Assembly: GCA_038207785.1 (NCBI GenBank)
Contig: JBBQZK010000001.1
Span: 9,405 to 73,404 of the forward strand
Reading direction: 5' to 3'
DNA: 64,000 nucleotides
DNA from: Candidatus Limnocylindria bacterium
GTDB lineage: Bacteria; Chloroflexota; Limnocylindria; P2-11E
Shown: piece after piece, positions 2,972 to 62,989 of the stretch
Layout of the letters: the number at the start of each line of letters is the position of its first letter
How positions within the stretch are numbered: position 1 is the first letter of the stretch
Made by a program: the position numbers and the translations under genes
The notes under the pieces: generated by a model
Seen by the model: only the letters and a program-made list of their open reading frames with translations
The model's database searches: none
What the model was told of the DNA's origin: nothing

Positions 2972-3390
2972 CGCGGCGGGTTCGGGTCGCGGGTGCTGTA
3001 AAGGACGCGACCGATCGCGATGAGCTCGCCCGTCGCGTTGCGCACCTCTGCGTCGGCGACGCCGATCGACCGCCCCAGCCGGACGACCCGTGCCGTCGCG
3101 GTCAATGCCTCACGGCCGGCGACCTTCAGGTAGTCCACCCGCAGGTCGATGGTCGGGACGCCGCGCCCGAGCTGGAGGGCGATCGCGTAGTCGCCGGCGA
3201 TATCGAGCAGCGACCCGATGACGCCCCCGTGGAGATACGGGACGGATGGGTCACTGACGAGCTCTTCCCGGAACGGCATCCGGATGAGCACGGCGCCGGC
3301 CGCGTCGGTGGAGAACTCGAGGCCGAGGAACGCGTGGAACGGGCTGGTCGCGAACTCGCGATCGAGCTCCGCGCGCGCGGCCGGCTCCAT
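2968..3390 (-). CDS. PaaI-family hotdog-fold acyl-CoA thioesterase
   Basis: It is 140 aa and has the PaaI-like ...PYLHGGVIGSLLDIAGDYAIAL... motif. Its ATG overlaps the stop of the acyl-CoA ligase gene. Confidence 0.7.
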   Translation of the reverse strand: MEPAARAELDREFATSPFHAFLGLEFSTDAAGAVLIRMPFREELVSDPSVPYLHGGVIGSLLDIAGDYAIALQLGRGVPTIDLRVDYLKVAGREALTATARVVRLGRSIGVADAEVRNATGELIAIGRVLYSTRDPNPPR

Positions 3391-7800: not shown

Positions 7801-8719
7801 AGAGCACGTCGGCGAGGAGGTTTCCGAGCACCGAGGCGATCGCGCTGAACAACGTGACCGTGATCACGACCGGATAGTCGCGGATGAACACCGAGTCGAC
7901 CGCGAGGCGGCCGACCCCTGGCAGCGAGAAGATGGATTCGACGATCGCCGCGCCGCTGATCAGGAACGGGAGCGTGAAGCCGAGCAGCGTGATCACCGGG
8001 AGGAGGGAGTTGCGCAGCGCGTGACGGACCACCACGGTCCGCCGCTGCAAGCCCTTCGCGTGGGCCGTCCGGACGTAATCCTGGCTGAGCGATTCGAGCA
8101 TCGACGACCGCACGTAGCGCGCGATCGTTCCCATGAGACCGGTGCTCAGGACGATAGTGGGCATCACCAGATACGGCGCCATCTCCATGGGATTCCATCC
8201 GGTCGCCAGTGGCGGTCGGATACCGCTCACCGGCAGCCAATGCAATCGGACCGCGAACAGCATGATGAGCATCAGGCCCAGCCAGAACGAGGGCACCGTG
8301 AAGCCGAACAGCGCGACGAGCGTGCCGAGGTAGTCGAGCGGCCCGTTGGGCCGGAGCGCCTGCAAGATGCCGATGGCGGCGCCCGCGAGCACGCCCACAA
8401 CGATCGCGAGCAGCCCGAGCGTCAGCGTTGTCGGCATGCGCTCGAGAACGAGATTGATCACCGGCTGGCGGGACCGGTACGAGTACAGCTCGCCCCGCGC
8501 GAGCGCGGTCATGGTCTTCACGTACTGCACCGGCAGCGGATCGTCGAGCCCGAGCTCCACCCGGAGCTCGCGGTATCGCTCGGGCGTGGCCTGCTCCGGA
8601 TCCACGAGCAGGCGCGCCGGATCGCCGGGGGCGAAGTGGATGATCGCGAACGACAAGATCGAGATCCCGATGATCAGCGGGATGAGCTGGATGAGACGGC
8701 GTGCGATGTACCGTCTCAT
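7766..8719 (-). CDS. peptide/nickel ABC transporter permease (DppB/OppB-like)
   Basis: It begins MRRYIARRLIQLIPLIIGISILSFAIIHFAPGDP, a typical DppB N-terminus. It has six TM segments and the EAA-like loop. Confidence 0.85.
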   Translation of the reverse strand: MRRYIARRLIQLIPLIIGISILSFAIIHFAPGDPARLLVDPEQATPERYRELRVELGLDDPLPVQYVKTMTALARGELYSYRSRQPVINLVLERMPTTLTLGLLAIVVGVLAGAAIGILQALRPNGPLDYLGTLVALFGFTVPSFWLGLMLIMLFAVRLHWLPVSGIRPPLATGWNPMEMAPYLVMPTIVLSTGLMGTIARYVRSSMLESLSQDYVRTAHAKGLQRRTVVVRHALRNSLLPVITLLGFTLPFLISGAAIVESIFSLPGVGRLAVDSVFIRDYPVVITVTLFSAIASVLGNLLADVLYGAADPRIQYS

Positions 8720-8773
8720 TCCAGCTCCCCCCTTACTGCGCGAACGCGGACGACCGGTGGCGTGGGTAGAACG

Positions 8774-10480: not shown

Positions 10481-10525
10481 TCCACCGCCTCCTTCGCGTT
10501 CCTGACCGCTCGCCTCCCCATGTTT

Positions 10526-10539
10526 ATGTCACGTGACAT
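10526..10539. promoter_or_regulatory. operator palindrome ATGTCACGTGACAT upstream of the substrate-binding-protein-dppBC-GntR operon
   Basis: It is a perfect 14-bp palindrome lying about 45 nt upstream of the substrate-binding-protein ATG. It is part of the repeated promoter-operator cassette. Confidence 0.7.
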
Positions 10540-10557
10540 TCCAGACCGGGCCACCCG

Positions 10558-10586
10558 ATGATGCGTCGCCGCCGATGCGCGGTCAA
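10558..10586 (-). promoter_or_regulatory. putative promoter: TTGACC (-35) - 17 nt - CATCAT (-10-like), directly upstream of the operator
   Basis: The same -35/17-nt/-10 arrangement recurs at 12119-12147, 16280-16308 and 24872-24900. Confidence 0.45.
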
Positions 10587-10597
10587 TGACCGCCGGC

Positions 10598-12061
10598 CTA
10601 CGGATACGGATTGACCGAAAGGGTGTTGAAGTTGCGGAGGAACGCCGGGATCGGCGCATCCGTGAAGGCCGGGGCGACCGCGCTGGCGTCCGGCCCGCCG
10701 ATGAGCTTGCCGTATGGGTTGCTGAGCCCAGCGGCAGCGGTGTTGAGATCGGCGGCCTTCGTGCTCGGCCAGCTGCCGTGGTCGATCCGGCCCAGCAGCA
10801 CCTGGATCGCGGCGATCTGCTCGGCGGCGGTGAACTGGCAGTGACCCGAGCGGTGCACGAGCAGCTGTCGGAGCTGGCTCGAGGTGCCGGCGTCCAGGAA
10901 CGCCTGCGCGTAGCCCTGGTCCTGGTTCGGGTATCCATAGGGGTCGGCCTGGGTGTGCATCGTCATGACGACCGCGCGCCCGATGTTGCCGCTGAAGATC
11001 GGATCGAGGTCCTCGACCTTCGTCACCGTGCCGGGATCCGCGCCGATGCGCGGCGCGCGCGCGAGCGTGCGGAGATCGGCGGCGAGGTTGAGTCCCGCGG
11101 CGGCATACATCGCCCGAACGATGTCGGCCGATGCCGAGCGCGCGAGCTGCGCCCCGTAGTCGACGCCGGTGTTCCAGGAGAAGTTCCCTCCGGTCACCGA
11201 GCCGTCGACGCTGTTCCAGGTGCCGACGCGGATCTCATAGTCGGCCCGGCCGTCGTCGTGATACATCCCATTGAATCGGCTGTTGAGGTACTGGTTGTAC
11301 TGCCGTGTCGCGTAATCGGTCGCGGCCGGCTGGGTCGCTCGCGCGTCGTCGATCCAATCCGGCGTATCGACCATCGCCTCGGCCAGCGCGAGGCGGGCGC
11401 GGCCTGCGGCCGTCTGCTGCGCGGCGTCGACCGTGGCGATGTAGGCGTTGTAGTAGCGGGTCAGCTGTCCGCCGTACTTGCCGATGTTCACCAGCGGCTG
11501 ATCGAATCCGAGGAGCTGCTGCATCACGAAGGCGTGGTCGAGGCGCTCGTTCGCGCGTCCGATGCTGCCGGCGATGTAGGTGCATTCCGCGAGCCCGCCG
11601 GCGAATCGCCCGGGATAGAACTGGAGCAGGTGCGCGGTCACCGCCCCACCGGCGGAGAGACCCCAGGCGATCGTCCGCGCCGGGTGACCGACGAGCCGCT
11701 CGAACGTGTCGAGCACGAGGGCCTGAGATGGATACATCTGCTTCGGCTCGTAGCAGAAGTCGCTGCAGGCGTACGAGCCCCCGGCGATCGCGAAGCCCTG
11801 GCCCAGCAGCCATTGGCGCGTCCACTGGTCGGAGCTGACCTGCGCGAGATTCGGGTCGCCCTGGATCCCGTGGCTGTAGAGGAAGAGCGTGCCGTTGTAG
11901 CTCCCCGGGACCTCGATGCGGTAGGTCGCGCCGTCGCTCATCGTTCCGACGTACACCGTCGGAGTGCTCGTCGCCGATGCCGACGTCCCGGTCAGGCCGA
12001 TCGCGACGACGAGTGCCACGCCGACGAGCCAGGCCGGCCAGCTGCTGCGCCCTGTCATCAT
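10598..12061 (-). CDS. secreted alpha/beta-fold hydrolase (esterase/depolymerase-like), signal peptide
   Basis: It starts MMTGRSSWPAWLVGVALVVAIGLTGTSASA and has a GGAGG RBS. It has a G-x-S-x-G nucleophile elbow, GLSAGG. The ORF-track start at 12691 is an over-extension. Confidence 0.5.
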   Translation of the reverse strand: MMTGRSSWPAWLVGVALVVAIGLTGTSASATSTPTVYVGTMSDGATYRIEVPGSYNGTLFLYSHGIQGDPNLAQVSSDQWTRQWLLGQGFAIAGGSYACSDFCYEPKQMYPSQALVLDTFERLVGHPARTIAWGLSAGGAVTAHLLQFYPGRFAGGLAECTYIAGSIGRANERLDHAFVMQQLLGFDQPLVNIGKYGGQLTRYYNAYIATVDAAQQTAAGRARLALAEAMVDTPDWIDDARATQPAATDYATRQYNQYLNSRFNGMYHDDGRADYEIRVGTWNSVDGSVTGGNFSWNTGVDYGAQLARSASADIVRAMYAAAGLNLAADLRTLARAPRIGADPGTVTKVEDLDPIFSGNIGRAVVMTMHTQADPYGYPNQDQGYAQAFLDAGTSSQLRQLLVHRSGHCQFTAAEQIAAIQVLLGRIDHGSWPSTKAADLNTAAAGLSNPYGKLIGGPDASAVAPAFTDAPIPAFLRNFNTLSVNPYP

Positions 12062-12080
12062 CGGACCTCCCCACGCTCGG

Positions 12081-12094
12081 ATGTCACGTGACAT
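12081..12094. promoter_or_regulatory. operator palindrome ATGTCACGTGACAT upstream of the secreted hydrolase gene
   Basis: It is a perfect 14-bp palindrome 20 nt upstream of the ATG. A TTGACC-N17-CATCAT promoter lies at 12119-12147. Confidence 0.7.
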
Positions 12095-12143
12095 GCAACG
12101 TGCACCCGGCCTTGCGCGATGATGGGCTTCCTGGGCCCTCGGG

Positions 12144-13493
12144 TCAATGACCGGGCCCGGAGGCCGCGGGCGCATCCGATCGTGCCGCGGCGAACAGCGC
12201 CGCGCGATCGACCGGCGTCCCGCGCTTGAACACCATCGCGATGCCGGTGGTCGCGGCGATCGTCCGCGTCGGGTCGCCGACGACCAGAACGAGGTCCGCT
12301 CGCTTCCCCGGCGCAACGACGCCGATATCGCTCGCCCCGAGCGTCTCTGCAGGCACGCTCGTCGCCGCCCGGAGCGCGGCGGCGGGTGAAAGGCCGGACC
12401 GCACGAGAAGCTCGAGCTCGCGATGGAATGAACTGCCCGGCAGGATGTAGGCGAACGGCGCATCGGTCGCGGCATGCAGGCGCACGCCCGCTTCGAACAT
12501 CGCGCCGGTGAACCGCATGACCTTCTCGAGCGCCCGCGCCGCCTGCGAGTAATCGGCCGCCGACCAGCCCTCGACGAACCGGTCACGCGTCTCACGCCAC
12601 CCGGAGCGCGCGACCGCGGCGTACTCGGCCATCGCCGGGTCCGCGTCGAGCGCCTCGATGCCGCGCCGGCCCCGTTCCACCGTGCGATCAAGGGTGATGA
12701 GCGTGGGGTTCACGTAGATCCCCTGCTCGGCCAGCCGCGCCGCGATGCGCTTGGTCCGGTCGGCTCCGAGGTCGACGGCCGCCCAGCCGCGGACGAAGTT
12801 GGCCCAGAACGCGCCGAGCCCGCGGCGGCGGCGATCCTCCGCCGGCCAGATGAGCTCCTCGGGCACGACCTCGGTGTAGAGGGACTGGGCGGTGTGCTCG
12901 AGACCGGCGACGCCGCAGTCGATGGCCTCGCCGGCGCGCACCTGTCCGAGATGGGCGCTCGTGCTCAGGCCGTGCTCGCGGGCTCGCCGGACGAACGTCC
13001 GCATGGCGGCGGCAGGCAACATCATGTACGCCTTACACGCGTCGACCCGCTTCTCGTCCAGCAAGTCGGCCGCGCGCACGGCATCCTCGTCATTCGCGAG
13101 GGCAAGGGAATGATCGGGCCAGAACGGCTCGGCGCCGTCGATCAGCGGACCGCAGCAATAGATGCGCGGGCCGCCGTCGCCACCGGAGCGCTCCGCGGCT
13201 CGCCACGGCAGGATGCGTTCGAAGGAGTTCCCGACGTCCTTGACCGTGGTGATGCCATAGGCGAGCCACAGGGGGAGCGCCTGCGGCTGCACGTGCGTGT
13301 GCATGTCGATGAACCCTGGCAGCACGGTGTGGCCACGCCCCGCGATGGTCCGGGCGCCCGCCGGCACTGCCGTGCGTTCGCGCGGCCCGCAGGCGACGAT
13401 CAGCTCGCGCTCGAGCACGACAGTGGCGTCCTCGATCACCGGGGCGCCGGTCCCATCGAACAGCCGCGCGCCGACGATCGCGATGGGCGCCAC
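12144..13493 (-). CDS. amidohydrolase-superfamily metal-dependent hydrolase
   Basis: It has ...LPGFIDMHTHV... with HxH metal ligands and a C-terminal ...GTDAP.../...GKRADLVLV... region. The GTG start at 13493 follows the M20 stop; the ORF-track start would overlap 104 nt. Confidence 0.7.
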   Translation of the reverse strand: MAPIAIVGARLFDGTGAPVIEDATVVLERELIVACGPRERTAVPAGARTIAGRGHTVLPGFIDMHTHVQPQALPLWLAYGITTVKDVGNSFERILPWRAAERSGGDGGPRIYCCGPLIDGAEPFWPDHSLALANDEDAVRAADLLDEKRVDACKAYMMLPAAAMRTFVRRAREHGLSTSAHLGQVRAGEAIDCGVAGLEHTAQSLYTEVVPEELIWPAEDRRRRGLGAFWANFVRGWAAVDLGADRTKRIAARLAEQGIYVNPTLITLDRTVERGRRGIEALDADPAMAEYAAVARSGWRETRDRFVEGWSAADYSQAARALEKVMRFTGAMFEAGVRLHAATDAPFAYILPGSSFHRELELLVRSGLSPAAALRAATSVPAETLGASDIGVVAPGKRADLVLVVGDPTRTIAATTGIAMVFKRGTPVDRAALFAAARSDAPAASGPGH

Positions 13494-49479: not shown

Positions 49480-51095
49480 CGCTCGTGCGCATCGCCCTTC
49501 GCGCCCAACGGACGGGGACGCTGGCGACGGCCTGGATCGGCACGGTGACGGGCATCGCCAACGGCGTCGGCTACGCCGCGGTCGCGGGGACGACGCACGC
49601 GGAACGCGTTGCCTTCGCCCGGCAGATGGAGCTTCTCGGGAAGCAGCTCTCGTATCTGCTCCCCCAGCCCGTCGCGCTCGACACCATGGGCGGCTACCTC
49701 ACGTGGCGGAGCTTTCCCACGCTCGCGATCGTGTTCGCGATGTGGGGCCTCCTTGCGGCGACGGGTGCAGGTCGCGGGGACGAGGAGCGCGGGCTCACCG
49801 AAGCGTGGCTCGCCACCGGCGTCAGCCGAGCGCGGTGGCTTGCCACCCGCACGGTCGGCTTCATCGCCGTCGCGATGGCGTCGCTCCTCGTCGGATGTGG
49901 GGTCACCACCGTCGCGGTCGCCCTGGTCGGCGATGCTGTGCCGCTCGGCGCGATGGCGTTCGCCGGCCTGCTCGTGCTCGGGGTGGCCGTGTGGGGCTTC
50001 GGACTCGGGCTGCTCGCGGCGCAGCTCGTGACGACGCGGCGAGCGGCGTCGGTCATCGGGGGCGCGGTGATCGTTGCGCTGTACGTCGTCAATTCGGTCC
50101 TCCGGGCGGGCGCGGATCCGGGGCCGCTCAAGTGGCTCTCTCCGTTCTACCTGTTCGACCGCAGCACGCCGCTCGTGCCGGGCGGCACGGTGGACCTCGT
50201 CGCCACGCTCCTCCTCGTCATGATCGGCGTGGTCCTGGCGGGCCTCGCGGCCGTCGCGTTCGCACGGCGTGACCTCGGCGGCGCGCTGTTCGAACGCCGA
50301 CCGGCGACCGCGGCGCCCACGGTGCGGCCGTCCTCCGACCCCCTGCTCCGGCTGCCGGTCCTCGCAGGGGTCGACCAGCAGCGGTGGTGGATCGTCGGCT
50401 GGGCCCTCGGCCTCGCGGTCCTCGGCTACTTCCTCACGTCGCTCGCGAGGACGATCGTGGACTCGCTCGCAGCGATCCCGTCGATGCAGGTCTATCTCAC
50501 GCGCGCGGGGATCAACGCGTACGCGGACATCGTCGGCGTCATCTGGTTCGGGACCGCGCTGCTGCTCATATCCGTCTTCGTGGTCGCGCAGGTGAACGGG
50601 TGGGCCGCGGATGACGCCGAAGGCCGGCTCGAGGCGTCCCTCGCCGCGGGCGCGTCCCGCCACCGGATCGTCCTCGAGCGCCTCGCCGCGTTGCTCGTGG
50701 CCGCCGGAATCGTCGCGGTCGTCAGCAGCGGGGGCGTGTACCTCGCGACGCGGGCGTTCGACATCAGCGTGCCCGGCGATCGGCTGCTGGTCGCCGCGCT
50801 CCTCGTGCTTCCCCTGGTGTTCGCGTTCGGCGGGATCGGACACGCGCTCGTCGGCTGGCGGCCGCGCGTCGCCGTGGTGATCCTGAGCACCGTCGCGATC
50901 GTGTCGTATTTCATTCAGCAGTTCGCGCCGGTCTTCGACGTGCCCGAGTGGGTCAGCAAGCTCTCGTTGTTCGTGCTGTACGGGACGCCGCTGACGAAGG
51001 TCGAATGGTCCGGTGCGCTGACGCTGACGGCCATCGGCATCGCCGGGACGGCTGTAGCGCTGGGCGGGATGCGCCGGCGGGACGTGGGTCGCTAG
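49476..51095 (+). CDS. ABC-2-type transporter permease (duplicated 6-TM domains)
   Basis: It is ATGA-coupled to the ATPase and is a 539-aa polytopic membrane protein. Confidence 0.7.
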   Translation: MTLVRIALRAQRTGTLATAWIGTVTGIANGVGYAAVAGTTHAERVAFARQMELLGKQLSYLLPQPVALDTMGGYLTWRSFPTLAIVFAMWGLLAATGAGRGDEERGLTEAWLATGVSRARWLATRTVGFIAVAMASLLVGCGVTTVAVALVGDAVPLGAMAFAGLLVLGVAVWGFGLGLLAAQLVTTRRAASVIGGAVIVALYVVNSVLRAGADPGPLKWLSPFYLFDRSTPLVPGGTVDLVATLLLVMIGVVLAGLAAVAFARRDLGGALFERRPATAAPTVRPSSDPLLRLPVLAGVDQQRWWIVGWALGLAVLGYFLTSLARTIVDSLAAIPSMQVYLTRAGINAYADIVGVIWFGTALLLISVFVVAQVNGWAADDAEGRLEASLAAGASRHRIVLERLAALLVAAGIVAVVSSGGVYLATRAFDISVPGDRLLVAALLVLPLVFAFGGIGHALVGWRPRVAVVILSTVAIVSYFIQQFAPVFDVPEWVSKLSLFVLYGTPLTKVEWSGALTLTAIGIAGTAVALGGMRRRDVGR

Positions 51096-53158
51096 CGGAC
51101 CGTCACGTACCAGTACACGCCGTAGTCCTCCATCCACTGCGCGCCCTCGACGAGCGGCCGGATGTACAAGCGATACGTCCCGGGCGTCGCGGGCGCCTGG
51201 ATCGTGAACTGGAACCAGGCGACCTGGTTCGGCCCGACGTAGGGAGCGGGCTGGAGGGCCACCCGGTTGTAGCGCGGCCATGCGGTGTTCGGCGAGCCGA
51301 GCTGGCCGTCACCGCCGAGAGGGCTCGGCTGATCCTGGCCGGGCATCGGCGACCACGTGCCGAGGTACGCGACCTCGCCCATGCGTCCGCTGACCCAGCC
51401 CCTCGAGCCCGAATTGTAGTACGCGACGGTCGCCGTCGAGCGGTCGCCGGCGCAGAGCGTCGGATATCCGGACTGGCCGTACCACGACGCATGGAAGCCG
51501 GGCTGCCCCGACGGCAGCGTCGGTGGCGGCGGGATCCCGGGTCCTTCGCTGGAGGTGCACGCAGCCGTCGACGGCGCCGGTGACACGACCGCGAGCTGGC
51601 CGGCTGCGACCGTGACCGTGCCGCTCGATGCGATGGCCCTGGTCGCGTCGATCGTCGCGGTATACGTGCCGGGGGCGAGATCGACGAAGCCGAACCAGCC
51701 CGACCCGTCGGTCGTGCGGCGCGCGATCACCACGTCGTTCGCGCCGTGGAGCGAGACGACCGCCTGCGTGATCGGCGCGCCGCTCGCGTCGACCGCGATC
51801 CCGCGGATGTGGCCCAGCGACGGCTGGTCCTTCCACGGCATGCCCGGCGCCGCGGCGGGTGTCGCGAAGACCGCGGGCGTCACGGGATCATCTGCACTCG
51901 GCTTCGTCAGCGCGGCGATGAGCTGCGCGCGCGCGGACGCGCCGGTGCGGGTCCCGGCATCCGTCGCCGCGTCAGGGGTGCGGTACGAGTAGCCGGCCCA
52001 TCCAGCCGATGGCACGCCGGCCGTGCTCGGCGCGACCGCGGTGCGCACCTGCCGGATGGTCGAGGGGATGTCGTTGAGGTACATCGCGGATCCCACCGCG
52101 CTCGACCGCTGGAACTGCGAATCCTTCGCGAAGTCGGACCACTGCGCGTACCAGGTGCGCTGATTGGCGTCGGTATCGCGCTTGTAGTTCATCGCGATGT
52201 TGAGATCGAGGATGCCCTCGCGCAGCCAGCCGACCCAATCCTGCAGCACTTCGGCATACGTCCGGGTCTTCTCCCAGCCGCCGACGCTCTGCGGCCCCGA
52301 GCCGTACGTGATCGTGTCCGCGCTGATCCGGATCGCAGGCCGGATGGCGTACGTCTCGAGATAGATCTTGCGCACGATGTTCGTGACCTGGTCGCGCCGC
52401 CACTGCGTCCACGCGACGTCCGTGTTCGCCGGCCGGTCCGTGCGTCCGGTCGAGGCCTGGAAGCGCGCGAGGGCCGTCGGGTTGTAGCCCCAAGAGGGCA
52501 CGTTCGTGCCGAAGTTGCCGTCGGGGTACCGGATGCGGTCGAGGTTGATGCCGTCGACGTTGTAGCCGCGCGCGATGCTCGTCGCGATGTTCACGATGTA
52601 CGCGGCGGCATCGGGGTGCCCGGGATCGATGAAGTACTCGTTCGTGAGGTTGGACGCGCCGTCGGAGCGGTAGTCGATCCAGTTGGCGGCGCCGGTCGTC
52701 GCCGGCCCGTGCTGGTTGTACGCGTGATTCGGGTCAGTAGGTGCGGCCGGGCCCTGCCACACGCCGGTGGTGATGATCCACGCGTGGACCTGGATGCCCT
52801 GGGCGTGCGCGGCATCGATGAGCGACTGCAGCGGATCGAACGGCGCGGGCGAGACCCCGGCGTATGCCGCGCGGGGCAGGCTCGAGCGGTTGCAAAGGCA
52901 GTCGCCGCGACGGACGACCTGCGCGACGATCGCGTTCATGTTGGCGCTCTTGACGTCCGTGACGAGCTGATCGATCTGGGCCTGCGTGTACAGGCCGTCC
53001 CCGAACGCGTCGACCCAGAACGCCCGCAGCTGGCCGCCGGCCGCGGCGACGGGCGCGATGTTCGGATCGACCGTCGTGCCCGCGGCGCGGGCTGGAGCCG
53101 CGCAGGCGAGCGCGGCCAGCACGACCGCGAGCGCGATCCCGATCGAGCGGCGGATCAC
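51092..53158 (-). CDS. secreted glycosyl-hydrolase-like family 10 (GHL10/PF02638-like) protein with a CarbR-like domain and a C-terminal ~140-aa beta domain
   Basis: It has a signal peptide VIRRSIGIALAVVLAALACAAPARA and ...FWVDAFGDGLYT... and ...GIQVHAWI.... The GTG at 53158 overlaps the upstream stop (GTGA). Confidence 0.55.
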   Translation of the reverse strand: MIRRSIGIALAVVLAALACAAPARAAGTTVDPNIAPVAAAGGQLRAFWVDAFGDGLYTQAQIDQLVTDVKSANMNAIVAQVVRRGDCLCNRSSLPRAAYAGVSPAPFDPLQSLIDAAHAQGIQVHAWIITTGVWQGPAAPTDPNHAYNQHGPATTGAANWIDYRSDGASNLTNEYFIDPGHPDAAAYIVNIATSIARGYNVDGINLDRIRYPDGNFGTNVPSWGYNPTALARFQASTGRTDRPANTDVAWTQWRRDQVTNIVRKIYLETYAIRPAIRISADTITYGSGPQSVGGWEKTRTYAEVLQDWVGWLREGILDLNIAMNYKRDTDANQRTWYAQWSDFAKDSQFQRSSAVGSAMYLNDIPSTIRQVRTAVAPSTAGVPSAGWAGYSYRTPDAATDAGTRTGASARAQLIAALTKPSADDPVTPAVFATPAAAPGMPWKDQPSLGHIRGIAVDASGAPITQAVVSLHGANDVVIARRTTDGSGWFGFVDLAPGTYTATIDATRAIASSGTVTVAAGQLAVVSPAPSTAACTSSEGPGIPPPPTLPSGQPGFHASWYGQSGYPTLCAGDRSTATVAYYNSGSRGWVSGRMGEVAYLGTWSPMPGQDQPSPLGGDGQLGSPNTAWPRYNRVALQPAPYVGPNQVAWFQFTIQAPATPGTYRLYIRPLVEGAQWMEDYGVYWYVTVR
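51095..51520. repeat. copy A of a ~420-bp direct repeat encoding the shared secreted beta domain
   Basis: It is roughly 80% identical at the nucleotide level and roughly 75% at the protein level with 53870-54295. Confidence 0.6.
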
Positions 53159-54426
53159 CGGACGTACGCCGCCTTGAAGGATTCGAAGCGCGCGTAGAAG
53201 ACGTCGGTGGGCTCGCCGAAGGCCTGCGCGAACGCGGCATGCCACTCGATCCCGCGACCCACGGCCTCGCACCACGTGCGCAGCGGCAGCGGTCCATTTG
53301 CGGCGAGGAGCCGATCGACCGCGAGGTACGAGACGCTGTACGGGTTCGCGCTGTCCGGCCATTGTGTCTCGAGCTGCGCGAGCGCCGGATGGGTCGTCGC
53401 GGTGACGAGCTGCCGCTTCGTGAACGTGTCCATGTTCCCCTGCGGGATGAGCCCGTCAGCGACGAGCGTGCGATACGCGAGCGACTCGGCCATTCCCTCC
53501 GAGAGCCAGCGGGGCCCGAGCATGCATGCGTTGCCGCCGAGCTCGCCCTGCCACACGTGGATGTACTCGTGCGCCGTGAGCTCTCGGCGCTCGGTGTCGG
53601 CGCTCCAGGTGTCCGCCGCCACGGCCCGTGGACTCACCCACTCGCTGTTGCTCGTGACGATGTCGATGCCATCGAGGCGTGCGAGGCAGCAGTACTGGTC
53701 GGCGGTGCTCCCGACCACGATCCGCGTCGTGGCCGTGCGCGAACGATCTCCGCCCACGGCGCGCGCCAGATATGCGGCCGCGCGATCGATGCCCTCGTGG
53801 ACGTCGGCGATGGAACGGGCATCGACGCCGGCCCCGACCGTGAAGTACATACCGCGCGGATCGGGCGGCGTGGCGGCCGGGGCGGAGCCGTCGGGGTTGA
53901 GGACGGTGATCTGCCAGAAGACCCCGTAGTCCTCCATCCATTGCGCGCCTTCGATGAGCGGGCGGATGGCGACGCGGTACGTGCCCGGGGTCGCGGGGGC
54001 CTGAACGGTGAACTGGAACCACGCGACCTGCCCGGGTCCGACGTACGCCGCGGGCTGCACGGCCGGGCGGTTGTACCGGGCCCAGCCCGTCGCCGGTGAT
54101 CCGAATGCACCGTCGCCGCCGACGATGGTCGCCGCGTCCTGCCCCGGGTCGCTGTCCGCGGTGCCGAGGTAGGCGACCTCACCGAGGCGCCCCCTGACCC
54201 AGCCCCGCGAGCCGGAGTTGTAGTAGGCGACCGTGGCCGTCATGCGATCGCCTGGGCAGAGCGACATGTACCCGGACTGGCCGAACCAGGCCGCGTGGAA
54301 CCCGGGCAACCCGGTGGCCCGGCTGGCCGGAGGGGGCACGCCCGGACCGACCGAGGAAGCGCACGTGGCTGCGTGTGCCGGACGGCCAAGCGCCGTCACC
54401 GACGCGACCACGAGCAGAGCCACCAT
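53155..54426 (-). CDS. secreted protein with an N-terminal shared ~140-aa beta domain and a C-terminal HExxH zinc-metallopeptidase-like domain
   Basis: It has a signal peptide MVALLVVASVTALGRPAHA and a GAGGA RBS. It carries ...TAHEYIHVWQGELGG...SEGMAESLAY.... Confidence 0.55.
   Translation of the reverse strand: MVALLVVASVTALGRPAHAATCASSVGPGVPPPASRATGLPGFHAAWFGQSGYMSLCPGDRMTATVAYYNSGSRGWVRGRLGEVAYLGTADSDPGQDAATIVGGDGAFGSPATGWARYNRPAVQPAAYVGPGQVAWFQFTVQAPATPGTYRVAIRPLIEGAQWMEDYGVFWQITVLNPDGSAPAATPPDPRGMYFTVGAGVDARSIADVHEGIDRAAAYLARAVGGDRSRTATTRIVVGSTADQYCCLARLDGIDIVTSNSEWVSPRAVAADTWSADTERRELTAHEYIHVWQGELGGNACMLGPRWLSEGMAESLAYRTLVADGLIPQGNMDTFTKRQLVTATTHPALAQLETQWPDSANPYSVSYLAVDRLLAANGPLPLRTWCEAVGRGIEWHAAFAQAFGEPTDVFYARFESFKAAYVR
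53870..54295. repeat. copy B of the ~420-bp direct repeat
   Basis: It pairs with copy A at 51095-51520. Confidence 0.6.
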
Positions 54427-54475
54427 CCCGATCCTCACTACGACCACAACTCTCACGCGCGCGAAGCGTGACGCG

Positions 54476-56656
54476 CTATCTCGCGTACCGTCCCAACCCT
54501 TCCACCAGCACTTCAGCGACGTGGCGCACGACGAACCCGTCGTGCGCCACGTTGGCGGCCCCGCGCAGATGCAGGAGGCAGCCGGGATTGTCCGTCGCGA
54601 GCACCGTCGCACCGGTCGCGCGAACGTTCTCGAGCTTGCGTTCGGCGATGCGCTGGGCGAGGGCCGGGTGATCGAGCGACGTCGAGCCACCGAACCCGCA
54701 GCACACCCCAGCCTCGGCGAGCTCGCGGACGGGGATGCCGGCGCGCTCGAGCAGCTGCCGACCGACGTCGCCGGAGCCCATGACGTTGGTCGTCTGACAG
54801 AACGCGTGGACAGTCACGGCCTCGGCATCTGCCCGGAGGGGCAGCGCCGGCGGGTCCGCGATCCGAGCGAGGAAGCTCAGCAGGTCGAGGGTCCGCTCGG
54901 AGAGGTGCTGTGCGCGGGCCCGCCACTCGGGCTCACCGGCGAGCAGCTCCACATAGTCGTGAGCGATGGCGATGGCGCAGGACGCACCGGCGCTCACGAT
55001 CCAGTCGGACCGCAGGTCCTCGAGCGCTTCGATCGTCTGCTTCGCCATGCGCCGGGCCGTCTCCCGATCGCCCGCATCGAGCGGCGGCAGGCCGCAGCAA
55101 TGCTGCCCGGCCGGGACGACGACGCGCACACCGCAGGCGCGCAGCAGCTCGATCGCGGCGCGAGCCTGCTCCGGGGCGAACCGGTCGGTGATGCACTGCA
55201 GGAAGTACGCGACCGTCAGACCGCGCGCCTTGCTTTCGCGCCACGGGCCGGTCGCATGCGCCTCGAACGCGCGGCCAAGGAGCGTGTCGCGCCCGGGACG
55301 CGACGCGAGCGCGGGGACGCTCCGCCACCGGAGAGCCGGCGGCAGGGGGATCCGCAGGAATGCGCCTCGCCGGAGCGGGCGCTGGACGACGGACGCGGCG
55401 CGCATCACGGCGTCGAAGACCCGCGGCCGGGACCAGACGGCGAACGCCACGCGCTTCGCGAACGGCAGGCCATTGGCCGCGACGACCGCCGCGCGCACCC
55501 GCAGGATCTGTTGCGGCAGCGGGATGTCGACCGGGCAGATGGTCGCGCACGCGTTGCAGCTCACGCAGAGGCTCTGCGGCCCGGCCGCGTTCTGGAGCCC
55601 GTGATGCGCGGCGGTATTCACGAGGCCGATCGGCCCCGAGTACACGTAGCCGAACACGTGCCCGCCGACGACCTGATATGACGGACAGACGTCGGCGCAC
55701 GCGGCGCAGCGGATGCAGCGCAATGCGTCGCGGAAGCCGGGATCCGCGTGCAGCTGCGTGCGGCCGTTATCCACCAGCACAAGGTGGATCTCGCGGTCGC
55801 CGTCGGTGCCGGTGATGAAGCTCGTGTAGCTCGTGATCTCCTGCGCGGTGGCACTGCGCGCGAGGAGACGGAGCTGTGACGCGGCGTCCGCGAACGTGGG
55901 CACGAGCTTTTCCCAGCCGGCGATGACGATGAGCGTGTTGGGCAGCGTGCTCACGAGGTCGCCGTTCCCTTCGTTCGTCACGAGCATGACGGTGCCGGTG
56001 TCCGCGATCAGCGCGTTCGCTCCGATCATGCCGGCGCCGGCCGCGAGGAACACCCGCCGTAGCTCGGCGCGCGCTAGCGCCACCATCGCGCCGATGTCGT
56101 CGGGATCGACTGCCCGCTGGGCCTCGGCCTCGAGAAGCGCGGCCACCTGCTGGCGACTCTTGTGGATGGCCGGCATGACCATGTGGCTCGGGGTCTCGTG
56201 CGCGAGCTGAACGATCCATTCGCCGAGATCCGTTTCGACGACGCGGATGCCCGCGGCCTCGAGGTGGTGATTCAGGAAGACCTCTTCACCAACCATCGAC
56301 TTGCCCTTCGCGAAGAGCGTCACGCCCCGCTCACGCAGGAGACCCAGGACGATGCTCCGTGCGTCGTCGGCCGTCCGCGCGTCGTGCACAACGCCGCCGC
56401 GCGCCGTGAACGCGCGTTCGAATCGTGCGCGGATCCCGGACGGATCCGCAAGCACGCTGTTCTTGGCTGTCACGAGGCGGGCCTTCTCCTCGGCGAACGA
56501 GCTGCCGGTGGCCCCGACAGCGGACGCTTCGGCTCGCAGTCGTTCGAATGCCGCGTCGCGGGTCAGCCGCCAGGCCCGCTGGAACGCGAGCAAGTTGCGG
56601 CGCAGGCGCGGGTCCGCCAGGGCGCGGCGATACCGCTCGCCGAATGGCGCGATCAC
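54476..56656 (-). CDS. lutB: lactate-utilisation LutB-LutA fusion protein (DUF162/LUD + 2x[4Fe-4S] + two CCG domains)
   Basis: It has ...CIRCAACADVCP... and ...CVSCNACATICP... ferredoxin motifs, then ...CCGLP... and ...CCGFGG... CCG domains. Confidence 0.7.
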   Translation of the reverse strand: MIAPFGERYRRALADPRLRRNLLAFQRAWRLTRDAAFERLRAEASAVGATGSSFAEEKARLVTAKNSVLADPSGIRARFERAFTARGGVVHDARTADDARSIVLGLLRERGVTLFAKGKSMVGEEVFLNHHLEAAGIRVVETDLGEWIVQLAHETPSHMVMPAIHKSRQQVAALLEAEAQRAVDPDDIGAMVALARAELRRVFLAAGAGMIGANALIADTGTVMLVTNEGNGDLVSTLPNTLIVIAGWEKLVPTFADAASQLRLLARSATAQEITSYTSFITGTDGDREIHLVLVDNGRTQLHADPGFRDALRCIRCAACADVCPSYQVVGGHVFGYVYSGPIGLVNTAAHHGLQNAAGPQSLCVSCNACATICPVDIPLPQQILRVRAAVVAANGLPFAKRVAFAVWSRPRVFDAVMRAASVVQRPLRRGAFLRIPLPPALRWRSVPALASRPGRDTLLGRAFEAHATGPWRESKARGLTVAYFLQCITDRFAPEQARAAIELLRACGVRVVVPAGQHCCGLPPLDAGDRETARRMAKQTIEALEDLRSDWIVSAGASCAIAIAHDYVELLAGEPEWRARAQHLSERTLDLLSFLARIADPPALPLRADAEAVTVHAFCQTTNVMGSGDVGRQLLERAGIPVRELAEAGVCCGFGGSTSLDHPALAQRIAERKLENVRATGATVLATDNPGCLLHLRGAANVAHDGFVVRHVAEVLVEGLGRYAR

Positions 56657-57057
56657 CCGACGAACACGACGTGCAGCTCGCGTGGTCCATGCACGCCCAC
56701 GGTGAGCGCGCGCTCGATGTCCGCCGTGCGGCTCGGTCCGGTCATCAACGTCACGTAGGGCCGGCCGTCGCGCACGAGACGGTCGATGCGCGCGAGCGCG
56801 TCATCGAGCGTGGGAAGGAGCTCGCCGGCGGGAACGAGGAGCCACAGCCGCTCGGCAAGCATCGCTTCGCCACGTTCTTCCCGCGGCAGCGCGACCGCGA
56901 CGGATCCGGTCTCGGCGACAGCGAACAGCGCGTCCACGATGCGATCGCCTTCGTGGTGACCAGCGGCCGCACGAGCAGCGGTCGCGTCGGTCGCGGTGGT
57001 GACGACGGCGCCGACGGCGGTCGCCTTTCGCGCGAAGTGCAGGTGCAGGTCGGACAA
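56653..57057 (-). CDS. lutC: LutC/YkgG-family (LUD-domain) protein, short form
   Basis: It has ...TLMTGPSRTADIERALTVGVHGPRELHVV... The TTG start lies immediately after the upstream stop. It is ATGA-coupled to lutB. Confidence 0.5.
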   Translation of the reverse strand: MSDLHLHFARKATAVGAVVTTATDATAARAAAGHHEGDRIVDALFAVAETGSVAVALPREERGEAMLAERLWLLVPAGELLPTLDDALARIDRLVRDGRPYVTLMTGPSRTADIERALTVGVHGPRELHVVFVG

Positions 57058-57684
57058 CTAGGTCGCGCGCTCGAACCGGTCCGTCTTCACGTTCCAACCG
57101 AACAGCAGCTTCGCGTCGGGCTTCCCGTCCTTCACGCCACGGATCTCGTGCACGGTGCTCACGACACGGCGCGTGGGGTGCTCCCACTCGCCGAGCGAAC
57201 GCAGGTACACCACGAGCGAGATCCGCGCGGCGTGGGCGTCGGGCACGCCGCAGCCGTGGCAGATGATCGCGAAGGCCTCGTCCGGGTCGGGCGCGTGCAG
57301 CGCCGTCGCGAGTGCGGTCCCTTGGGTGATGCCGTTGAACGCGCGGCGCACCGGATCGCCGAAGACGTACCCGGCAGACCACGTACCGCGGCTGATCTCC
57401 GGCACGATGAGGTAGCCGCCCTTCGCCTTCTCGATCAGCGGATCGACGTCGTCGCCGTCGTACCCGAGCGCGAGCACCGGCTTTGATTGCTCGGCGAGCA
57501 TCGCCCGCATCGTGGTCGTCTTGCCCGCGAGGCGCGGGACCGCCATCACGATGAAGCTCTTGTGCGCTCGCGCTGTATCGCGAAGGAGATCGGCGATCTC
57601 CTGGGACATCGTGCCGTTCGCCACCTGATCGGCGAGCCTGATCGGAGCTTCAGCCACGCGCAAACAGTAATCATCCGCCGACAT
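57058..57684 (-). CDS. truncated/divergent CpaF/VirB11-like secretion-ATPase core domain protein
   Basis: It has a Walker A-like AVPRLAGKTTT. ...YLIVPEISRG... resembles the rpDrIIVGEvRG box, and ...TALATALHAPDPDEA... resembles the TGHdGsmtTiHAnsa His box. It has no N-terminal domain. The ATG at 57684 has a GAGGTGGG RBS. Confidence 0.4.
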   Translation of the reverse strand: MSADDYCLRVAEAPIRLADQVANGTMSQEIADLLRDTARAHKSFIVMAVPRLAGKTTTMRAMLAEQSKPVLALGYDGDDVDPLIEKAKGGYLIVPEISRGTWSAGYVFGDPVRRAFNGITQGTALATALHAPDPDEAFAIICHGCGVPDAHAARISLVVYLRSLGEWEHPTRRVVSTVHEIRGVKDGKPDAKLLFGWNVKTDRFERAT

Positions 57685-57746: not shown

Positions 57747-58463
57747 CTAGTGGCGCGGGCCGTGGCCGGTCGAGTCGGCGAGCTTGGCCATCCGGTCGGC
57801 CAGCCCGGTCTCGAGCTGCGTCGCCTGAGCGGCGGTGATGGTGCCGGCGGTCTTCGCGGCCTCGATCTTCGTGGTCGCGTCGGTGACGAGGGCTTGGATC
57901 AAGGCCTCGCGGGTCTTGCCTGCGGCCGTCGCGATCTGGGCCAGGGTCTGGCCGCCTTGCATCTTCGTGTGCAGATCGGCGGTCGTGGTGCCGAGGAACG
58001 TCGCCGCGGTGGCGAGCGGGTCCGCCTGCACGCCAAAGCCGAAGCCGTGGCCCGGGCCACCGGGGCCACCGTTCGGGTGCTGATCGGCCGTGCCGGGCTG
58101 GTCGACCATCGTCGAGATCGCCTGCCGCTCGGCACTGACGAGCGCGGCGATGAGTCCGTCGCGGGTCTTGCCGTTGGCGACCGCGATGGCCGCGAGGGTC
58201 TTGCCGGTCGCCAGCTGCGTCCGCAGGTCGGCCGCGGCGATGCCGATGTACGCGGCGGCGGCCGTCATGAGGTCGGCGCCCTTGGGACCGTTGTCGGACA
58301 GCACGCCGAGATCGGCGCCGATCTGCGCGGCGAGCTGGGTGCCTGGGCCGGGCTGGGCGGCCGCGGCGATCGCGGACGTCCAGACGATGCCGGCGCTCGC
58401 CACGCCGCCTGACAGGACGAGCGCGACACCGGTCGCGATGAGGGCCCGCTCGATGTTCTTCAC
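57747..58463 (-). CDS. secreted protein with internal ~45-aa tandem repeats
   Basis: It has a signal peptide MKNIERALIATGVALVLSGGVASA. Its repeats are ...ADLRTQLATGKTLAAIAVANGKTRDGLIAALV... and ...ADLHTKMQGGQTLAQIATAAGKTREALIQALV.... It uses a GTG start with an AAGGAG RBS. It is divergent from the two-component system. Confidence 0.5.
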   Translation of the reverse strand: MKNIERALIATGVALVLSGGVASAGIVWTSAIAAAAQPGPGTQLAAQIGADLGVLSDNGPKGADLMTAAAAYIGIAAADLRTQLATGKTLAAIAVANGKTRDGLIAALVSAERQAISTMVDQPGTADQHPNGGPGGPGHGFGFGVQADPLATAATFLGTTTADLHTKMQGGQTLAQIATAAGKTREALIQALVTDATTKIEAAKTAGTITAAQATQLETGLADRMAKLADSTGHGPRH

Positions 58464-61615: not shown

Positions 61616-62128
61616 CTAGCGCTCGGTCTCGCCGGTCGAGCCCTGGCCCGGCTTGCCCTGGCCACCCTGCGTTCCGCTCTGGCCACCCTGGCCACCGTGC
61701 GATCCGCTCTGGCCACCCTGGCCAACCTTCGTTCCGCTCTCGCCGCCCTGGCCACCCTGCTGCGAACCGCCCTGACCGCCCTGGCCACCGTGCGATCCGC
61801 TCTGGCCACCCTGGCCACCGTGCGATCCGCTCTGGCCACCCTGCGATCCGCTCTGGCCACCCTGGCCACCCTGCGATCCGCTCTGGCCACCCTGGCCACC
61901 GTGCGATCCGCTCTGGCCACCCTGCGTTCCGCTCTGGCCACCCTGACCAACCTTCGTTCCGCTCTGGCCGCCCTGGCCACCCTGCTGCGAACCGCCCTGA
62001 CCGCCCTGACGGCCGGCCTGGTCCTGCGGCTGGCCCTGCTTGCCCTGCTCGCCGTGCTTACCCTGCTGACCTTGGCCACCCTGGGATCCACCCTGGCTTC
62101 CTTGTCCCTGCTTGTCCTTGTCCTGCAT
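61616..62128 (-). CDS. Gly/Gln/Ser-rich low-complexity (GGQ-repeat) intrinsically disordered protein
   Basis: It reads MQDKDKQGQGSQGGSQGGQGQQGKHGEQGKQ...(QGGQSGSHGG)n...GETER. It has a strong AAGGAGG RBS. The ORF-track start is over-extended. Confidence 0.6.
   Translation of the reverse strand: MQDKDKQGQGSQGGSQGGQGQQGKHGEQGKQGQPQDQAGRQGGQGGSQQGGQGGQSGTKVGQGGQSGTQGGQSGSHGGQGGQSGSQGGQGGQSGSQGGQSGSHGGQGGQSGSHGGQGGQGGSQQGGQGGESGTKVGQGGQSGSHGGQGGQSGTQGGQGKPGQGSTGETER
61640..62100. repeat. coding minisatellite with 24/30-bp periodicity (unit about CCGCTCTGGCCACCCTGGCCACCGTGCGAT) and a ~210-bp higher-order duplication
   Basis: Directly visible tandem repeats. The block ccaaccttcgttccgctct.gccgccctggccaccctgctgcgaaccgccctgaccgccctg occurs twice. 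Confidence 0.7.
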
Positions 62129-62216
62129 TGCGTGGCCTCCTTCGTATTTACCGGCGAGCCGGCTCCTTCTATCGCCGCAGAGGCCGTGCCAGAGACCGTA
62201 CGCGGCCGCCTGGCCG

Positions 62217-62657
62217 TCACCCGTTACGAACGGCCGAGCCGCGCCCACGCGGTCGGTCGTCCAGCCGCGCGACAAGCGCGCGGACCCGGCGCTCGATGCC
62301 GTCACGGACAAGCCGGAAGGCCGCAAGCCGCTCCTCGTCCGGACCGCGCGCGAGCGCGGGGTCGGCGAGCTTCCACCGCAGCTGTACCGCGGCGCCGGGC
62401 GGGATCGGACAGTTCGCATCGCACACCGTGACGCAGATGTCGAAGGGTCCGGCGACGTCGTCCACGCACGTGCTGCGCTGGGCCCTGATATCGATCCCCA
62501 CCTCGGCCATCGCGCGGATCGCGAGCGGATGGAGCTCGCTCGCGACCGTGCCCGCGCTCTCGGCGACGAACCGATCGCCGCCGAGCGCGCGGAGGAATGC
62601 TTCGGCCATCTGCGAGCGGGCGGAGTTGTGCCCGCAGAGGAACAGCACGCGCGTCAC
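62217..62657 (-). CDS. arsC: LMW-PTP-family arsenate reductase (thioredoxin-coupled ArsC type) / low-molecular-weight phosphatase
   Basis: It has the P-loop LFLCGHNSARSQMAEA (CX5R) plus downstream ...VTVCDANCP... cysteines in the ArsC positions. Confidence 0.65.
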   Translation of the reverse strand: MTRVLFLCGHNSARSQMAEAFLRALGGDRFVAESAGTVASELHPLAIRAMAEVGIDIRAQRSTCVDDVAGPFDICVTVCDANCPIPPGAAVQLRWKLADPALARGPDEERLAAFRLVRDGIERRVRALVARLDDRPRGRGSAVRNG

Positions 62658-62683: not shown

Positions 62684-62989
62684 CTACTCGGGAAGCTTGA
62701 GCTTCTTTCCCGGGTGGATCATGTCGGGGTCGTCCCCGATGACATCCTTGTTCAGCTCGTAGATCTCTTTCCAGCGGTTCGCGTCGCCGAGCTGCTCCTG
62801 GGCGATGTCCGAAAGGTTGTCACCGTCCTTGATCGTGTAGGACTTCTCGGACTTCTCGGACTTCTCCGACTTATCTGCGGCCTTGATCTCGTCGGGCGCG
62901 TGGATCTCGCTCCCGGGAATGACCTTGTACTCCTTCGGTGCGTAATCCGGGGTCTTGGTCTCGCTGTCGGTGCCTGCGTCGTTCGGCAT
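62684..62989 (-). CDS. small LysM-domain protein with an N-terminal Lys/Glu/Ser-rich (KSEKSEKSEKS) tail
   Basis: The C-terminal ...YTIKDGDNLSDIAQEQLGDANRWKEIYELNKDVIGDDPDMIHPGKKLKLP is a LysM fold. Confidence 0.65.
   Translation of the reverse strand: MPNDAGTDSETKTPDYAPKEYKVIPGSEIHAPDEIKAADKSEKSEKSEKSYTIKDGDNLSDIAQEQLGDANRWKEIYELNKDVIGDDPDMIHPGKKLKLPE

Follow-up and report, generated by a model that had tools for sequence, protein, structure and literature searches.

What is the gene of a secretion-type ATPase doing directly in front of genes for lactate utilization, and do the two belong together? The question is raised by a locus within the window, the whole stretch of 64,000 nucleotides that was analyzed, which comes from the genome of a soil Chloroflexota bacterium. 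An earlier note on this DNA had described an ATPase gene followed by a short lutC, with its TTG start at the ATPase stop codon, and by a lutB::lutA fusion of 726 aa. The open reading frames, the gene junctions, and the Pfam domains bear out this order. All features listed below lie on the minus strand, and those near the upstream and downstream ends are included as context.

57747..58463, minus strand: 238 aa protein with a predicted signal peptide and an internal repeat (context)
57058..57684, minus strand: short P-loop NTPase, 208 aa from ATG 57684 or 199 aa from GTG 57657
57514..57537, minus strand: Walker A (P-loop) of the ATPase, residues 50-57, PRLAGKTT
57394..57414, minus strand: Walker-B-like strand of the ATPase, residues 91-97, YLIVPEI, with invariant E96
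57292..57315, minus strand: His-box strand of the ATPase, residues 124-131, TALATALHA, with H130 and A131 invariant
56653..57057, minus strand: shortened LutC/LldG-like subunit, 134 aa, TTG start, LUD_dom
54476..56656, minus strand: LutB::LutA fusion, LldH/LdhH-like large subunit, 726 aa, GTG start
55532..55717, minus strand: two CxxCxxCxxxCP [4Fe-4S] motifs of the fusion, residues 314-325 and 364-375
54695..55099, minus strand: LutA-derived part of the fusion with two CCG motifs, residues 520-522 and 652-654
53155..54456, minus strand: secreted HExxH protein, about 430 aa, start uncertain, HEYIH motif (context)
51092..53167, minus strand: GHL10 glycosyl-hydrolase-like protein with a CarboxypepD_reg domain, start approximate (context)

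The ATPase stop codon TAG (57060-57058) is followed without a gap by the TTG start of lutC (57057), and the lutC stop overlaps the lutBA start in the sequence GTGA. A tight ATPase-lutC junction is found in most species of the clade, and in one relative (L006) it is a 1 nt overlap. This fits co-transcription, and lutC-lutBA are probably transcribed together with the ATPase gene. A scan for promoter and terminator consensus sequences between 51 and 59 kb gave no match; such a consensus is uninformative for an organism of this high GC content. The HExxH gene starts 19 nt past the lutBA stop on the same strand. It had been noted that a GHL10 protein and a peptidase lie downstream in this orientation, and this holds. 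The GHL10 protein matches Pfam GHL10 (2.5e-33) and CarboxypepD_reg (2.7e-10) and has orthologues of 691 aa, while the HExxH protein has orthologues of 413-429 aa and a weak match to Peptidase_M1 (0.005) that is under the cut-off. The mechanical open reading frames of this pair (53155-54690 and 51092-53362) overrun their upstream neighbours, and the true genes are shorter, about 430 and 690 codons long.

The lut genes would encode an L-lactate dehydrogenase of the LldG/LldH (LdhG/LdhH) type, an iron-sulfur enzyme with two subunits. In the large subunit, a LutB portion with its LUD domain and two [4Fe-4S] sites would be joined to the two CCG domains of LutA, and the small subunit would be a shortened LUD protein. 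The same parts, a CCG protein, a LUD protein with Fe-S sites, and a LUD protein, are found in LutABC of Bacillus subtilis and LldEFG of Shewanella oneidensis. There they are encoded by three separate genes in the order A-B-C, with a presumed chemistry shared with the window enzyme; the gene order of the window is C, followed by B fused to A. By analogy with LutABC/LldEFG and LldGH, L-lactate would be oxidized to pyruvate and the clusters would relay the electrons to an acceptor that is probably a quinone.

The arrangement had been described as a rearrangement of the lut genes, which does not hold. The layout has a precedent: a LutC gene ahead of a LutB::LutA fusion is an already published organization with an NCBIfam model of its own. 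It is that of the L-lactate dehydrogenase LldG/LldH (DVU3032/DVU3033) of Desulfovibrio vulgaris, for which both the gene order and the genetics have been reported (PMC4481167). There, too, a LUD-only small-subunit gene lies directly upstream of the large-subunit gene, and the large subunit fuses LUD, two [4Fe-4S] sites, and two CCG domains. Mutants and activity staining have established L-lactate-specific dehydrogenase activity for DVU3032-33 alone (PMC4481167), whereas in the window, whose host is a Chloroflexota bacterium, the activity is predicted from sequence. DVU3032 has 209 aa, in contrast to the small subunit of the window, which has 134 aa and is missing an internal stretch of the LUD domain. 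Genes for a lactate permease, pta/ack, or por were not found near the lut genes of the window.

The fusion fits this architecture along its whole length. Its residues 9-717 align with positions 6-705 of the 706 positions of NCBIfam NF045670 (LdhH) at 3e-202. The score of 673.7 bits is under the 800-bit equivalog cut-off of NCBI, which we read from the alignment as the same architecture in a divergent lineage. Pfam finds LUD_dom (3.7e-44), the 4Fe-4S dicluster domain Fer4_8 at residues 311-378 (4.9e-13), and two CCG stretches (1.3e-25). The cluster ligands C314, C317, C320, and C324 with P325, and C364, C367, C370, and C374 with P375, are invariant in the alignment of the fusion, as are C520, C521, and G522 and C652, C653, and G654 of the CCG motifs. 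The fusion has a dN/dS of 0.13-0.16. Orthologues of 721-725 aa are fused in more than 20 independent assemblies and relatives are encoded on at least 512 metagenome stretches, including 80 loci at 44-87% identity, so a merger of separate lutB and lutA frames by sequencing error is excluded.

The small subunit is the part of the lut layout that is local to the clade. The 134 aa LutC passes the gathering score of Pfam LUD_dom (8.6e-19; 68.4 bits against a cut-off of 22.6), and its match is restricted to positions 89-189 of a complete domain of about 190 positions. Likewise, its alignment with the LUD protein 2g40 is limited to residues 130-224 of the latter. With a LutC profile built here, members of the clade match at about 12-51 and 85-197, and the stretch between is absent only in this clade. 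The short form is kept among relatives (125-139 aa). We considered whether insertion of the ATPase gene had truncated lutC and rejected this, as lutC also has 134 aa where it stands behind a different gene (L004/L005, L069). In L022 lutC seemed to have been lost, but this was rejected as well, since the locus has a run of N that is a scaffold gap.

The earlier note had called the ATPase a truncated, CpaF/VirB11-like secretion ATPase without the N-terminal domain. The superfamily and the missing domain stand, but the likeness to CpaF and VirB11 does not. The best matches by sequence profile and by fold are to the C-terminal domain of the archaellum ATPase FlaI/ArlI (PDB 4ii7/4ihq) and of Archaeoglobus fulgidus GspE (afGspE; 2oap). 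The profiles of these archaeal-type proteins give E-values of 1e-25 and 3e-22, against 4.5e-9 for CpaF and 0.003 for VirB11. CpaF/TadA and VirB11 also have N-terminal domains and sit in tad or type IV secretion clusters. A match to an unrelated P-loop family was looked for and none was found. In Pfam, the domain search that had recovered LUD_dom and CCG from the lut proteins found nothing in the window ATPase at E<=0.1, and the gathering score of T2SSE (PF00437) was not reached; weak T2SSE matches occur in 5 of 35 members of its family, the best at 0.0023.

The protein spans only residues 228-497 (approximately) of FlaI and 232-498 of afGspE. The RecA-like C-terminal ATPase fold is present, with a predicted structure of high confidence (pLDDT 92.6) in which the first 11 residues are disordered. 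Most homologues have 199 aa, and GTG 57657 may be the true start rather than ATG 57684. The motif strings that had been claimed for the ATPase are all in the sequence (AGKTTT, YLIVPEISRG, and ALHAPDPDEA). When aligned with FlaI and afGspE, the Walker A, the Walker B glutamate, the His box, and an RRV motif all correspond, but the Asp box does not. In hhalign, with three family profiles, E96 of YLIVPE falls on the Walker B glutamate of afGspE and FlaI (YIIVGE[V] in afGspE), and a β-strand predicted at residues 91-97 matches this placement. HMMER local alignments instead put the Walker B of FlaI over Y106-G109; this was rejected in favour of the hhalign global alignment and the predicted strand. 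For the His box, the counterparts are STLHA in afGspE and ATFHA in FlaI. An Asp box (IEDxxE) was not found after the second strand, where the aligned segment, LALGYDGDD, is unconserved in the family. Relative to FlaI and afGspE, the family thus lacks the N-terminal domains (about 230 residues), including the N2 domain, which packs against the adjacent subunit, the IEDTxE Asp box, and the subsequent hairpin. Behind Walker B it has about 10 extra residues, among which Y106 and G109 are invariant. The C-terminal helical extension of afGspE is retained in longer members.

The short length is not a truncation in this genome, since it is common to the whole family of 266 clusters at 50% identity (199-300 aa). 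Nor is the protein degenerate, as had been proposed. It is under purifying selection (dN/dS 0.08-0.26), and G54, K55, T57, E96, H130, and A131 are invariant across 35 members with identities down to 24%; only the Asp box and the hairpin behind it are lost. Named members come from Limnocylindria, Thermomicrobium (WP_012643292 of T. roseum; hhalign 6e-38), Dehalococcoidia, and Chloroflexia, and the family was seen here in Chloroflexota records only. The family would consist solely of the RecA-like domain found at the C-terminus of archaeal-type FlaI/GspE ATPases. Unlike FlaI, which has FlaJ, FlaH, and pilin-type neighbours, its members have no platform protein, pilin, or other machine genes within 7-10 kb in the annotated loci, nor in the window between 39 and 64 kb. 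Because they lack the N-terminal domain and such genes, these proteins cannot work like a secretion ATPase. The ATPase most likely binds and probably hydrolyzes a nucleoside triphosphate, and it would act on a partner that is not encoded alongside. PADLOC and PHROGs returned nothing for the ATPase or the 238 aa protein except one chance-level PADLOC match to the ATPase (E 0.0083; 13.2 bits), so a defence-system or phage origin is unsupported.

Does the ATPase belong to the lut genes? We think it likely that two unrelated units stand side by side here, namely a LldG/LldH-type lactate dehydrogenase and an orphan FlaI/GspE-type ATPase. Their adjacency would come from shared ancestry within the Limnocylindria lineage and not from a functional partnership. 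The comparison that bears on this is one of neighbourhoods and not of whole genomes, and genomes without lut genes at the locus may carry them elsewhere. Within that scope, lutC-lutBA lies directly behind the ATPase in 12 of the 15 species-level loci and is not directly adjacent in the other 3. At two loci (L002 and L034) the DNA alignment skips from the ATPase stop (window position ~57061/57066) to ~54443/54474, which is the exact span of lutC-lutBA. At another locus (L004/L005) four signalling genes, one of them on the opposite strand, stand between the ATPase and lutC-lutBA. Thus lutC-lutBA comes and goes beside a constant ATPase, and it may have been inserted here or lost in sister lineages.

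These observations also weigh on the proposal that the ATPase was recruited as an accessory subunit or maturation factor of Lut, for example for nucleotide-driven assembly or Fe-S loading, which is close to the earlier claim that it was co-opted into the lut operon. The abutting stop and start codons and the order kept in 12 of the 15 loci speak for it. So does a second, remoter lineage (L013, L016, L101, L108), whose ATPase is 54-55% identical and has a LutB-LutA fusion within about 400 nt, with a Fe-S_biosyn (HesB/IscA-like) gene between them. This recurrence is more than we would expect by chance of wholly unrelated genes, and it may be leftover ancestral synteny. In that lineage, however, the ATPase and LutB-LutA cannot share a transcript because they are convergent. 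Where sister species lack lutC-lutBA at the locus, with clean boundaries in two of them, the ATPase is kept under equal constraint (dN/dS 0.22-0.24 in L002/L034). The four genes inserted in L004/L005 count against recruitment as well. Six remoter loci (L001, L011, L015, L018, L036, L037) have no lut gene within 7-8 kb of the ATPase. In the reverse direction, 53 LutB-LutA loci could be followed upstream for 1.5 kb or more, and the ATPase precedes the fusion in none of them. The family also has no conserved Cys in the alignment of its 35 members. We consider recruitment to Lut unlikely, and we hold it equally doubtful that the ATPase serves the neighbouring Fe-S lactate dehydrogenase in the two Limnocylindria-related lineages.

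The ATPase might instead be the partner of the 238 aa secreted protein upstream, under a divergent two-component system, as a small envelope-related module. The 238 aa protein belongs to no Pfam family. Throughout the closest clade its gene separates the ATPase gene from the two-component system, and the order of histidine kinase, response regulator, protein of about 240 aa, and ATPase is found in every locus with an ATPase identity of at least 77% whose sequence extends sufficiently far upstream. This protein and the ATPase are encoded on the same strand, 62-120 nt apart. However, the 238 aa protein and the two-component system are missing beside the 66% identical homologue in L001 and beside all remoter ones. 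The whole upstream block of 8 kb is syntenic, so the association may be just inherited gene order. We judge this partnership improbable.

A third alternative is that the ATPase has no function any more and is left over from a pilus, archaellum, or secretion system that was lost. The missing N-terminal domain and Asp box might suggest this, as might the lack of platform or pilin genes near it in every locus examined. We consider it very improbable given the purifying selection on the ATPase, its length and its P-loop, Glu, and His residues that stay constant to 24% identity, its confidently predicted fold, and its named members from several Chloroflexota classes.

For the lut genes, the locus only extends an already described enzyme type by a Chloroflexota member whose small subunit is shortened, and as an aid to annotation it marks soil Limnocylindria of this kind as probable lactate oxidizers. 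For the ATPase, it is possible, though we put this forward tentatively, that an uncharacterized family uses the catalytic domain of FlaI/GspE alone, as an independent module driven by nucleotides, for a task unrelated to secretion or motility. Annotation pipelines label proteins of this family 'hypothetical' or 'type II secretion system protein E'. Recognizing them as a separate family with only the catalytic domain would keep secretion or pilus systems from being wrongly inferred for Chloroflexota genomes, and it offers a small, tractable protein with which to probe the abilities of a bare motor catalytic domain.

The genes described here lie on the reverse strand of the window, which has a G+C content of ~70% and whose closest protein matches, all from soil metagenomes, carry the names Candidatus Limnocylindria / Chloroflexota. 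In transcription order they are:

57747-58463 (-), 238-aa protein with a signal-peptide-like N-terminus
57058-57684 (-), short P-loop protein (the short ATPase)
56653-57057 (-), LutC-like gene, 134 aa (lutC)
54476-56656 (-), LutB-LutA fusion, 726 aa (lutBA)
53155-54456 (-), HExxH protein, ~430 aa
51092-53167 (-), GHL10 protein

This is the layout of the earlier note (ATPase, lutC with abutting TTG, 726-aa lutB::lutA, GHL10/HExxH pair downstream), which stands as written. The ATPase stop codon TAG is followed immediately by the lutC TTG, the lutC stop and the lutBA GTG overlap as GTGA, and the short ATPase gene is probably co-transcribed with lutC-lutBA in the window. The HExxH gene has its first in-frame GTG 19 nt from the lutBA stop, and lutBA and the HExxH gene may share one transcript. 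The transcript may continue into the two secreted-protein genes because ~390 bp found between lutBA and the next gene in four related loci (L020, L006, L024, L025) are missing in the window (54456-54476). In L020 this segment (3339-3730) holds an opposite-strand 88-aa signal-peptide ORF with no Pfam match. One domain (CxSS.GPG...PATPGTYR...EGAQWMEDYG) is shared by the HExxH protein, where it makes up the N-terminal ~150 aa, and the GHL10 protein, where it makes up the C-terminal ~150 aa; tblastn with one copy finds the other in several loci.

In the 726-aa fusion, a LUD domain (77-296) is followed by two CxxCxxCxxxCP motifs (314-325, 364-375) and a pair of CCG domains. Its residues 9-717 align to positions 6-705 of NCBIfam NF045670, 'L-lactate dehydrogenase (quinone) large subunit LdhH' (3e-202), with a score of 673.7 bits that is under the 800-bit equivalog cut-off. 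The single reading frame is genuine, as had been proposed: many independent assemblies carry orthologues of 721-725 aa, which rules out an assembly artefact, scanning of metagenomes gave at least 512 relatives (80 were fetched, 44-87% identity), and dN/dS of lutBA is 0.13-0.16. The same order, a LUD-only gene followed by a LutB::LutA fusion, is found in DVU3032 (lldG, 209 aa) and DVU3033 (lldH), whose deletion mutants grow more slowly on L-lactate and oxidise less of it (Vita et al. 2015, PMC4481167).

Of the lutC product, the C-terminal ~95 residues alone match the LUD model (Pfam positions 89-189; PDB 2g40 residues 130-224). Set against a LutC profile built from the fetched LutB-LutA loci, members of the clade cover positions ~12-51 and ~85-197 and lack the stretch between; upstream LUD ORFs in more distant LutB-LutA loci are 170-260 aa. 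The shortening is particular to the window's clade. The short LutC also occurs where lutC comes after another gene (L004/L005, L069), and the ATPase gene is therefore not the reason for the shortening. The lut part of the locus is a predicted lactate dehydrogenase of the LldG/LldH type whose small subunit has this clade-specific shortening.

The short ATPase alone matches no Pfam family, and the NCBIfam models FlaI, TrbB and TadA are matched at chance level only. It has 542 close homologues, mostly of 199 aa, and 266 matches at E<=0.001 among 1.84 billion cluster representatives (200-280 aa, identity down to ~25%). Named members also come from Thermomicrobium, Dehalococcoidia and Chloroflexia; WP_012643292.1 of the T. 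roseum megaplasmid, annotated 'type II secretion system protein E', belongs to the family (hhalign 6e-38). The earlier description as CpaF/VirB11-like holds at the level of the superfamily, but the nearest relatives are of the archaeal GspE/FlaI type: the family profile matches the C-terminal domains of A. fulgidus GspE (afGspE; 1.2e-25, residues 232-498 of 511) and FlaI (3e-22), and is far weaker on CpaF (4.5e-9), PilT (about 1e-4) and VirB11 (0.003). A confident AlphaFold2 model from 42 homologues (pLDDT 92.6) has FlaI and afGspE at the top Foldseek ranks (TM 0.74-0.79). The N-terminal domain is indeed missing, since the match starts at residue 232 of afGspE. The words 'truncated' and 'degenerate' do not fit: the architecture is stable and common to the whole family, the motif residues are invariant, and dN/dS is 0.08-0.26 for relatives with dS 0.4-0.7, indicating purifying selection (dS of ~0.6-0.9 approaches saturation in this high-GC genome, and dN/dS of more distant pairs is rough).

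Invariant in a 35-sequence alignment are G54, K55, T57, E96, Y106, H130, A131 and R173. HMMER local alignments place the FlaI Walker B (YILVGE) over Y106-G109, and the acidic position would therefore be unconserved. Global profile-profile alignment with hhalign, against afGspE/FlaI segments rebuilt from printed alignments, puts YLIVPEIS on YIIVGEVR in all three runs, each with a different family alignment; a ~25-residue hairpin after the Asp box is deleted and a ~10-residue insertion with Y106 and G109 follows Walker B. The HMMER placement was set aside for that of hhalign, which fits the predicted secondary structure (in order, helix 80-86, strand 91-97, helix 110-119, strand 124-129), and on this basis E96 is read as the putative Walker B Glu and H130 as the putative His-box His. 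Walker A (G54/K55/T57), E96 and H130 are retained throughout the 35-sequence alignment; the segment corresponding to the Asp box (LALGYDGDD in the window protein) is not conserved in it.

The association of ATPase and lut genes was examined from both sides. Among 15 species-representative genomes with a close ATPase homologue (77-93% identity; the relatives compared are mostly metagenome bins), lutC-lutBA directly follows the ATPase in 12 and not in 3; one apparent lutC loss among ATPase loci was a scaffold gap. Aligned to the window, the DNA of L002 and L034 matches as far as the ATPase stop (~57061/57066) and again from window ~54443/54474, 23-45 nt further on in the relative; exactly lutC-lutBA is cleanly absent. 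The ATPase there is under constraint equal to that elsewhere (dN/dS 0.22-0.24). In L004/L005 the ATPase and lutC-lutBA are split by four acquired signalling genes (8597-13219): a PAS-GerE regulator, which alone is on the opposite strand, a GAF-HisKA-receiver hybrid kinase, a single receiver and an HD-domain response regulator. In a neighbour-joining ATPase tree, lut-less loci fall at two or more places within the lut-adjacent clade.

Six more distant lineages (L001, L011, L015, L018, L036, L037) have no lut genes within 7-8 kb of the ATPase. Its neighbours there are mutually unrelated and include an ABC transporter, flgM and flagellar genes, tRNA synthetases, shikimate-pathway genes with GAPDH, and formate dehydrogenase. 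In L011/L012 (7574-8672) a 47%-identical homologue lies 170 nt after a flgM-like gene and ~2.4 kb from a fliW-flagellin-flgK-flgN cluster, with an IS element in between. In T. roseum (L035; NC_011961, 494616-499076) a 302-aa member precedes a MoxR-like AAA_5 ATPase and a VWA-domain protein on the same strand. Starting from LutB-LutA, the ATPase-family HMM gave three matches in 80 metagenome loci, one with the window-type arrangement (L049) and two convergent downstream copies (L101, L108). Where the flank on the side in question is 1.5 kb or longer, the ATPase is upstream in 0 of 53 loci and downstream in only 2 of 49. Taken together, these comparisons of gene neighbourhoods lend no support to co-option of the ATPase into a rearranged lut operon, as had been suggested, or to a part for it in the lactate system.

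A looser functional tie between the two is improbable. The sole observation favouring it is a second lineage (L013, L016, L101, L108; ATPase 54-55% identical) in which the ATPase again has a LutB-LutA fusion (44-47% identical, no lutC) within ~400 nt. The fusion lies past a Fe-S_biosyn (HesB/IscA-like) gene and is convergent to the ATPase, so there is no common transcript, and we read this proximity as an ancestral leftover. In L016 (8995-16334) a glcD-glcE-glcF-like operon that includes a CitMHS/ArsB-type transporter ends with LutB-LutA, and in L013 (8987-12294) LutB-LutA follows a Na+/H+ exchanger gene; in both, the convergent Fe-S_biosyn and short ATPase genes are just past its 3' end.

Further observations concern the upstream side. 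The 238-aa protein (57747-58463, -) has a predicted signal peptide and a ~60-aa repeat in two copies (DL.T....G.TLA.IA...GKTR..LI.ALV), matches no Pfam family, and in the close clade is always between a divergent two-component system and the ATPase. A tandem array at 61656-61985 (30-nt period, 11.5 copies) lies inside ORF 61616-62419 (-), which encodes a repeat protein rich in Gly, Gln and Ser (GGQGGQSGS...) that matches no Pfam family; in relatives, this position has only small ORFs. A 101-aa LysM-domain protein (62684-62989, -; 9-nt repeat at 62840-62872) adjoins an LMWPc/arsenate-reductase-like gene (62217-62657, -), and the LMWPc gene is in a conserved upstream synteny block.

Judged from sequence comparison, the locus is a set of lactate dehydrogenase genes beside an unrelated orphan ATPase. 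Platform, pilin and archaellum genes were found neither near any member examined nor in window 39-64 kb. Other Chloroflexota do have archaellum clusters with full-length ArlI (PMC12488501); these clusters are a possible evolutionary source of the short ATPase domain, and that paper on the clusters makes no mention of the short family. Given purifying selection and the invariance of the Walker A, Walker B and His residues, our best guess is that the short ATPase is a free-standing module that binds and probably hydrolyses nucleotide, and that would act on a partner encoded elsewhere.
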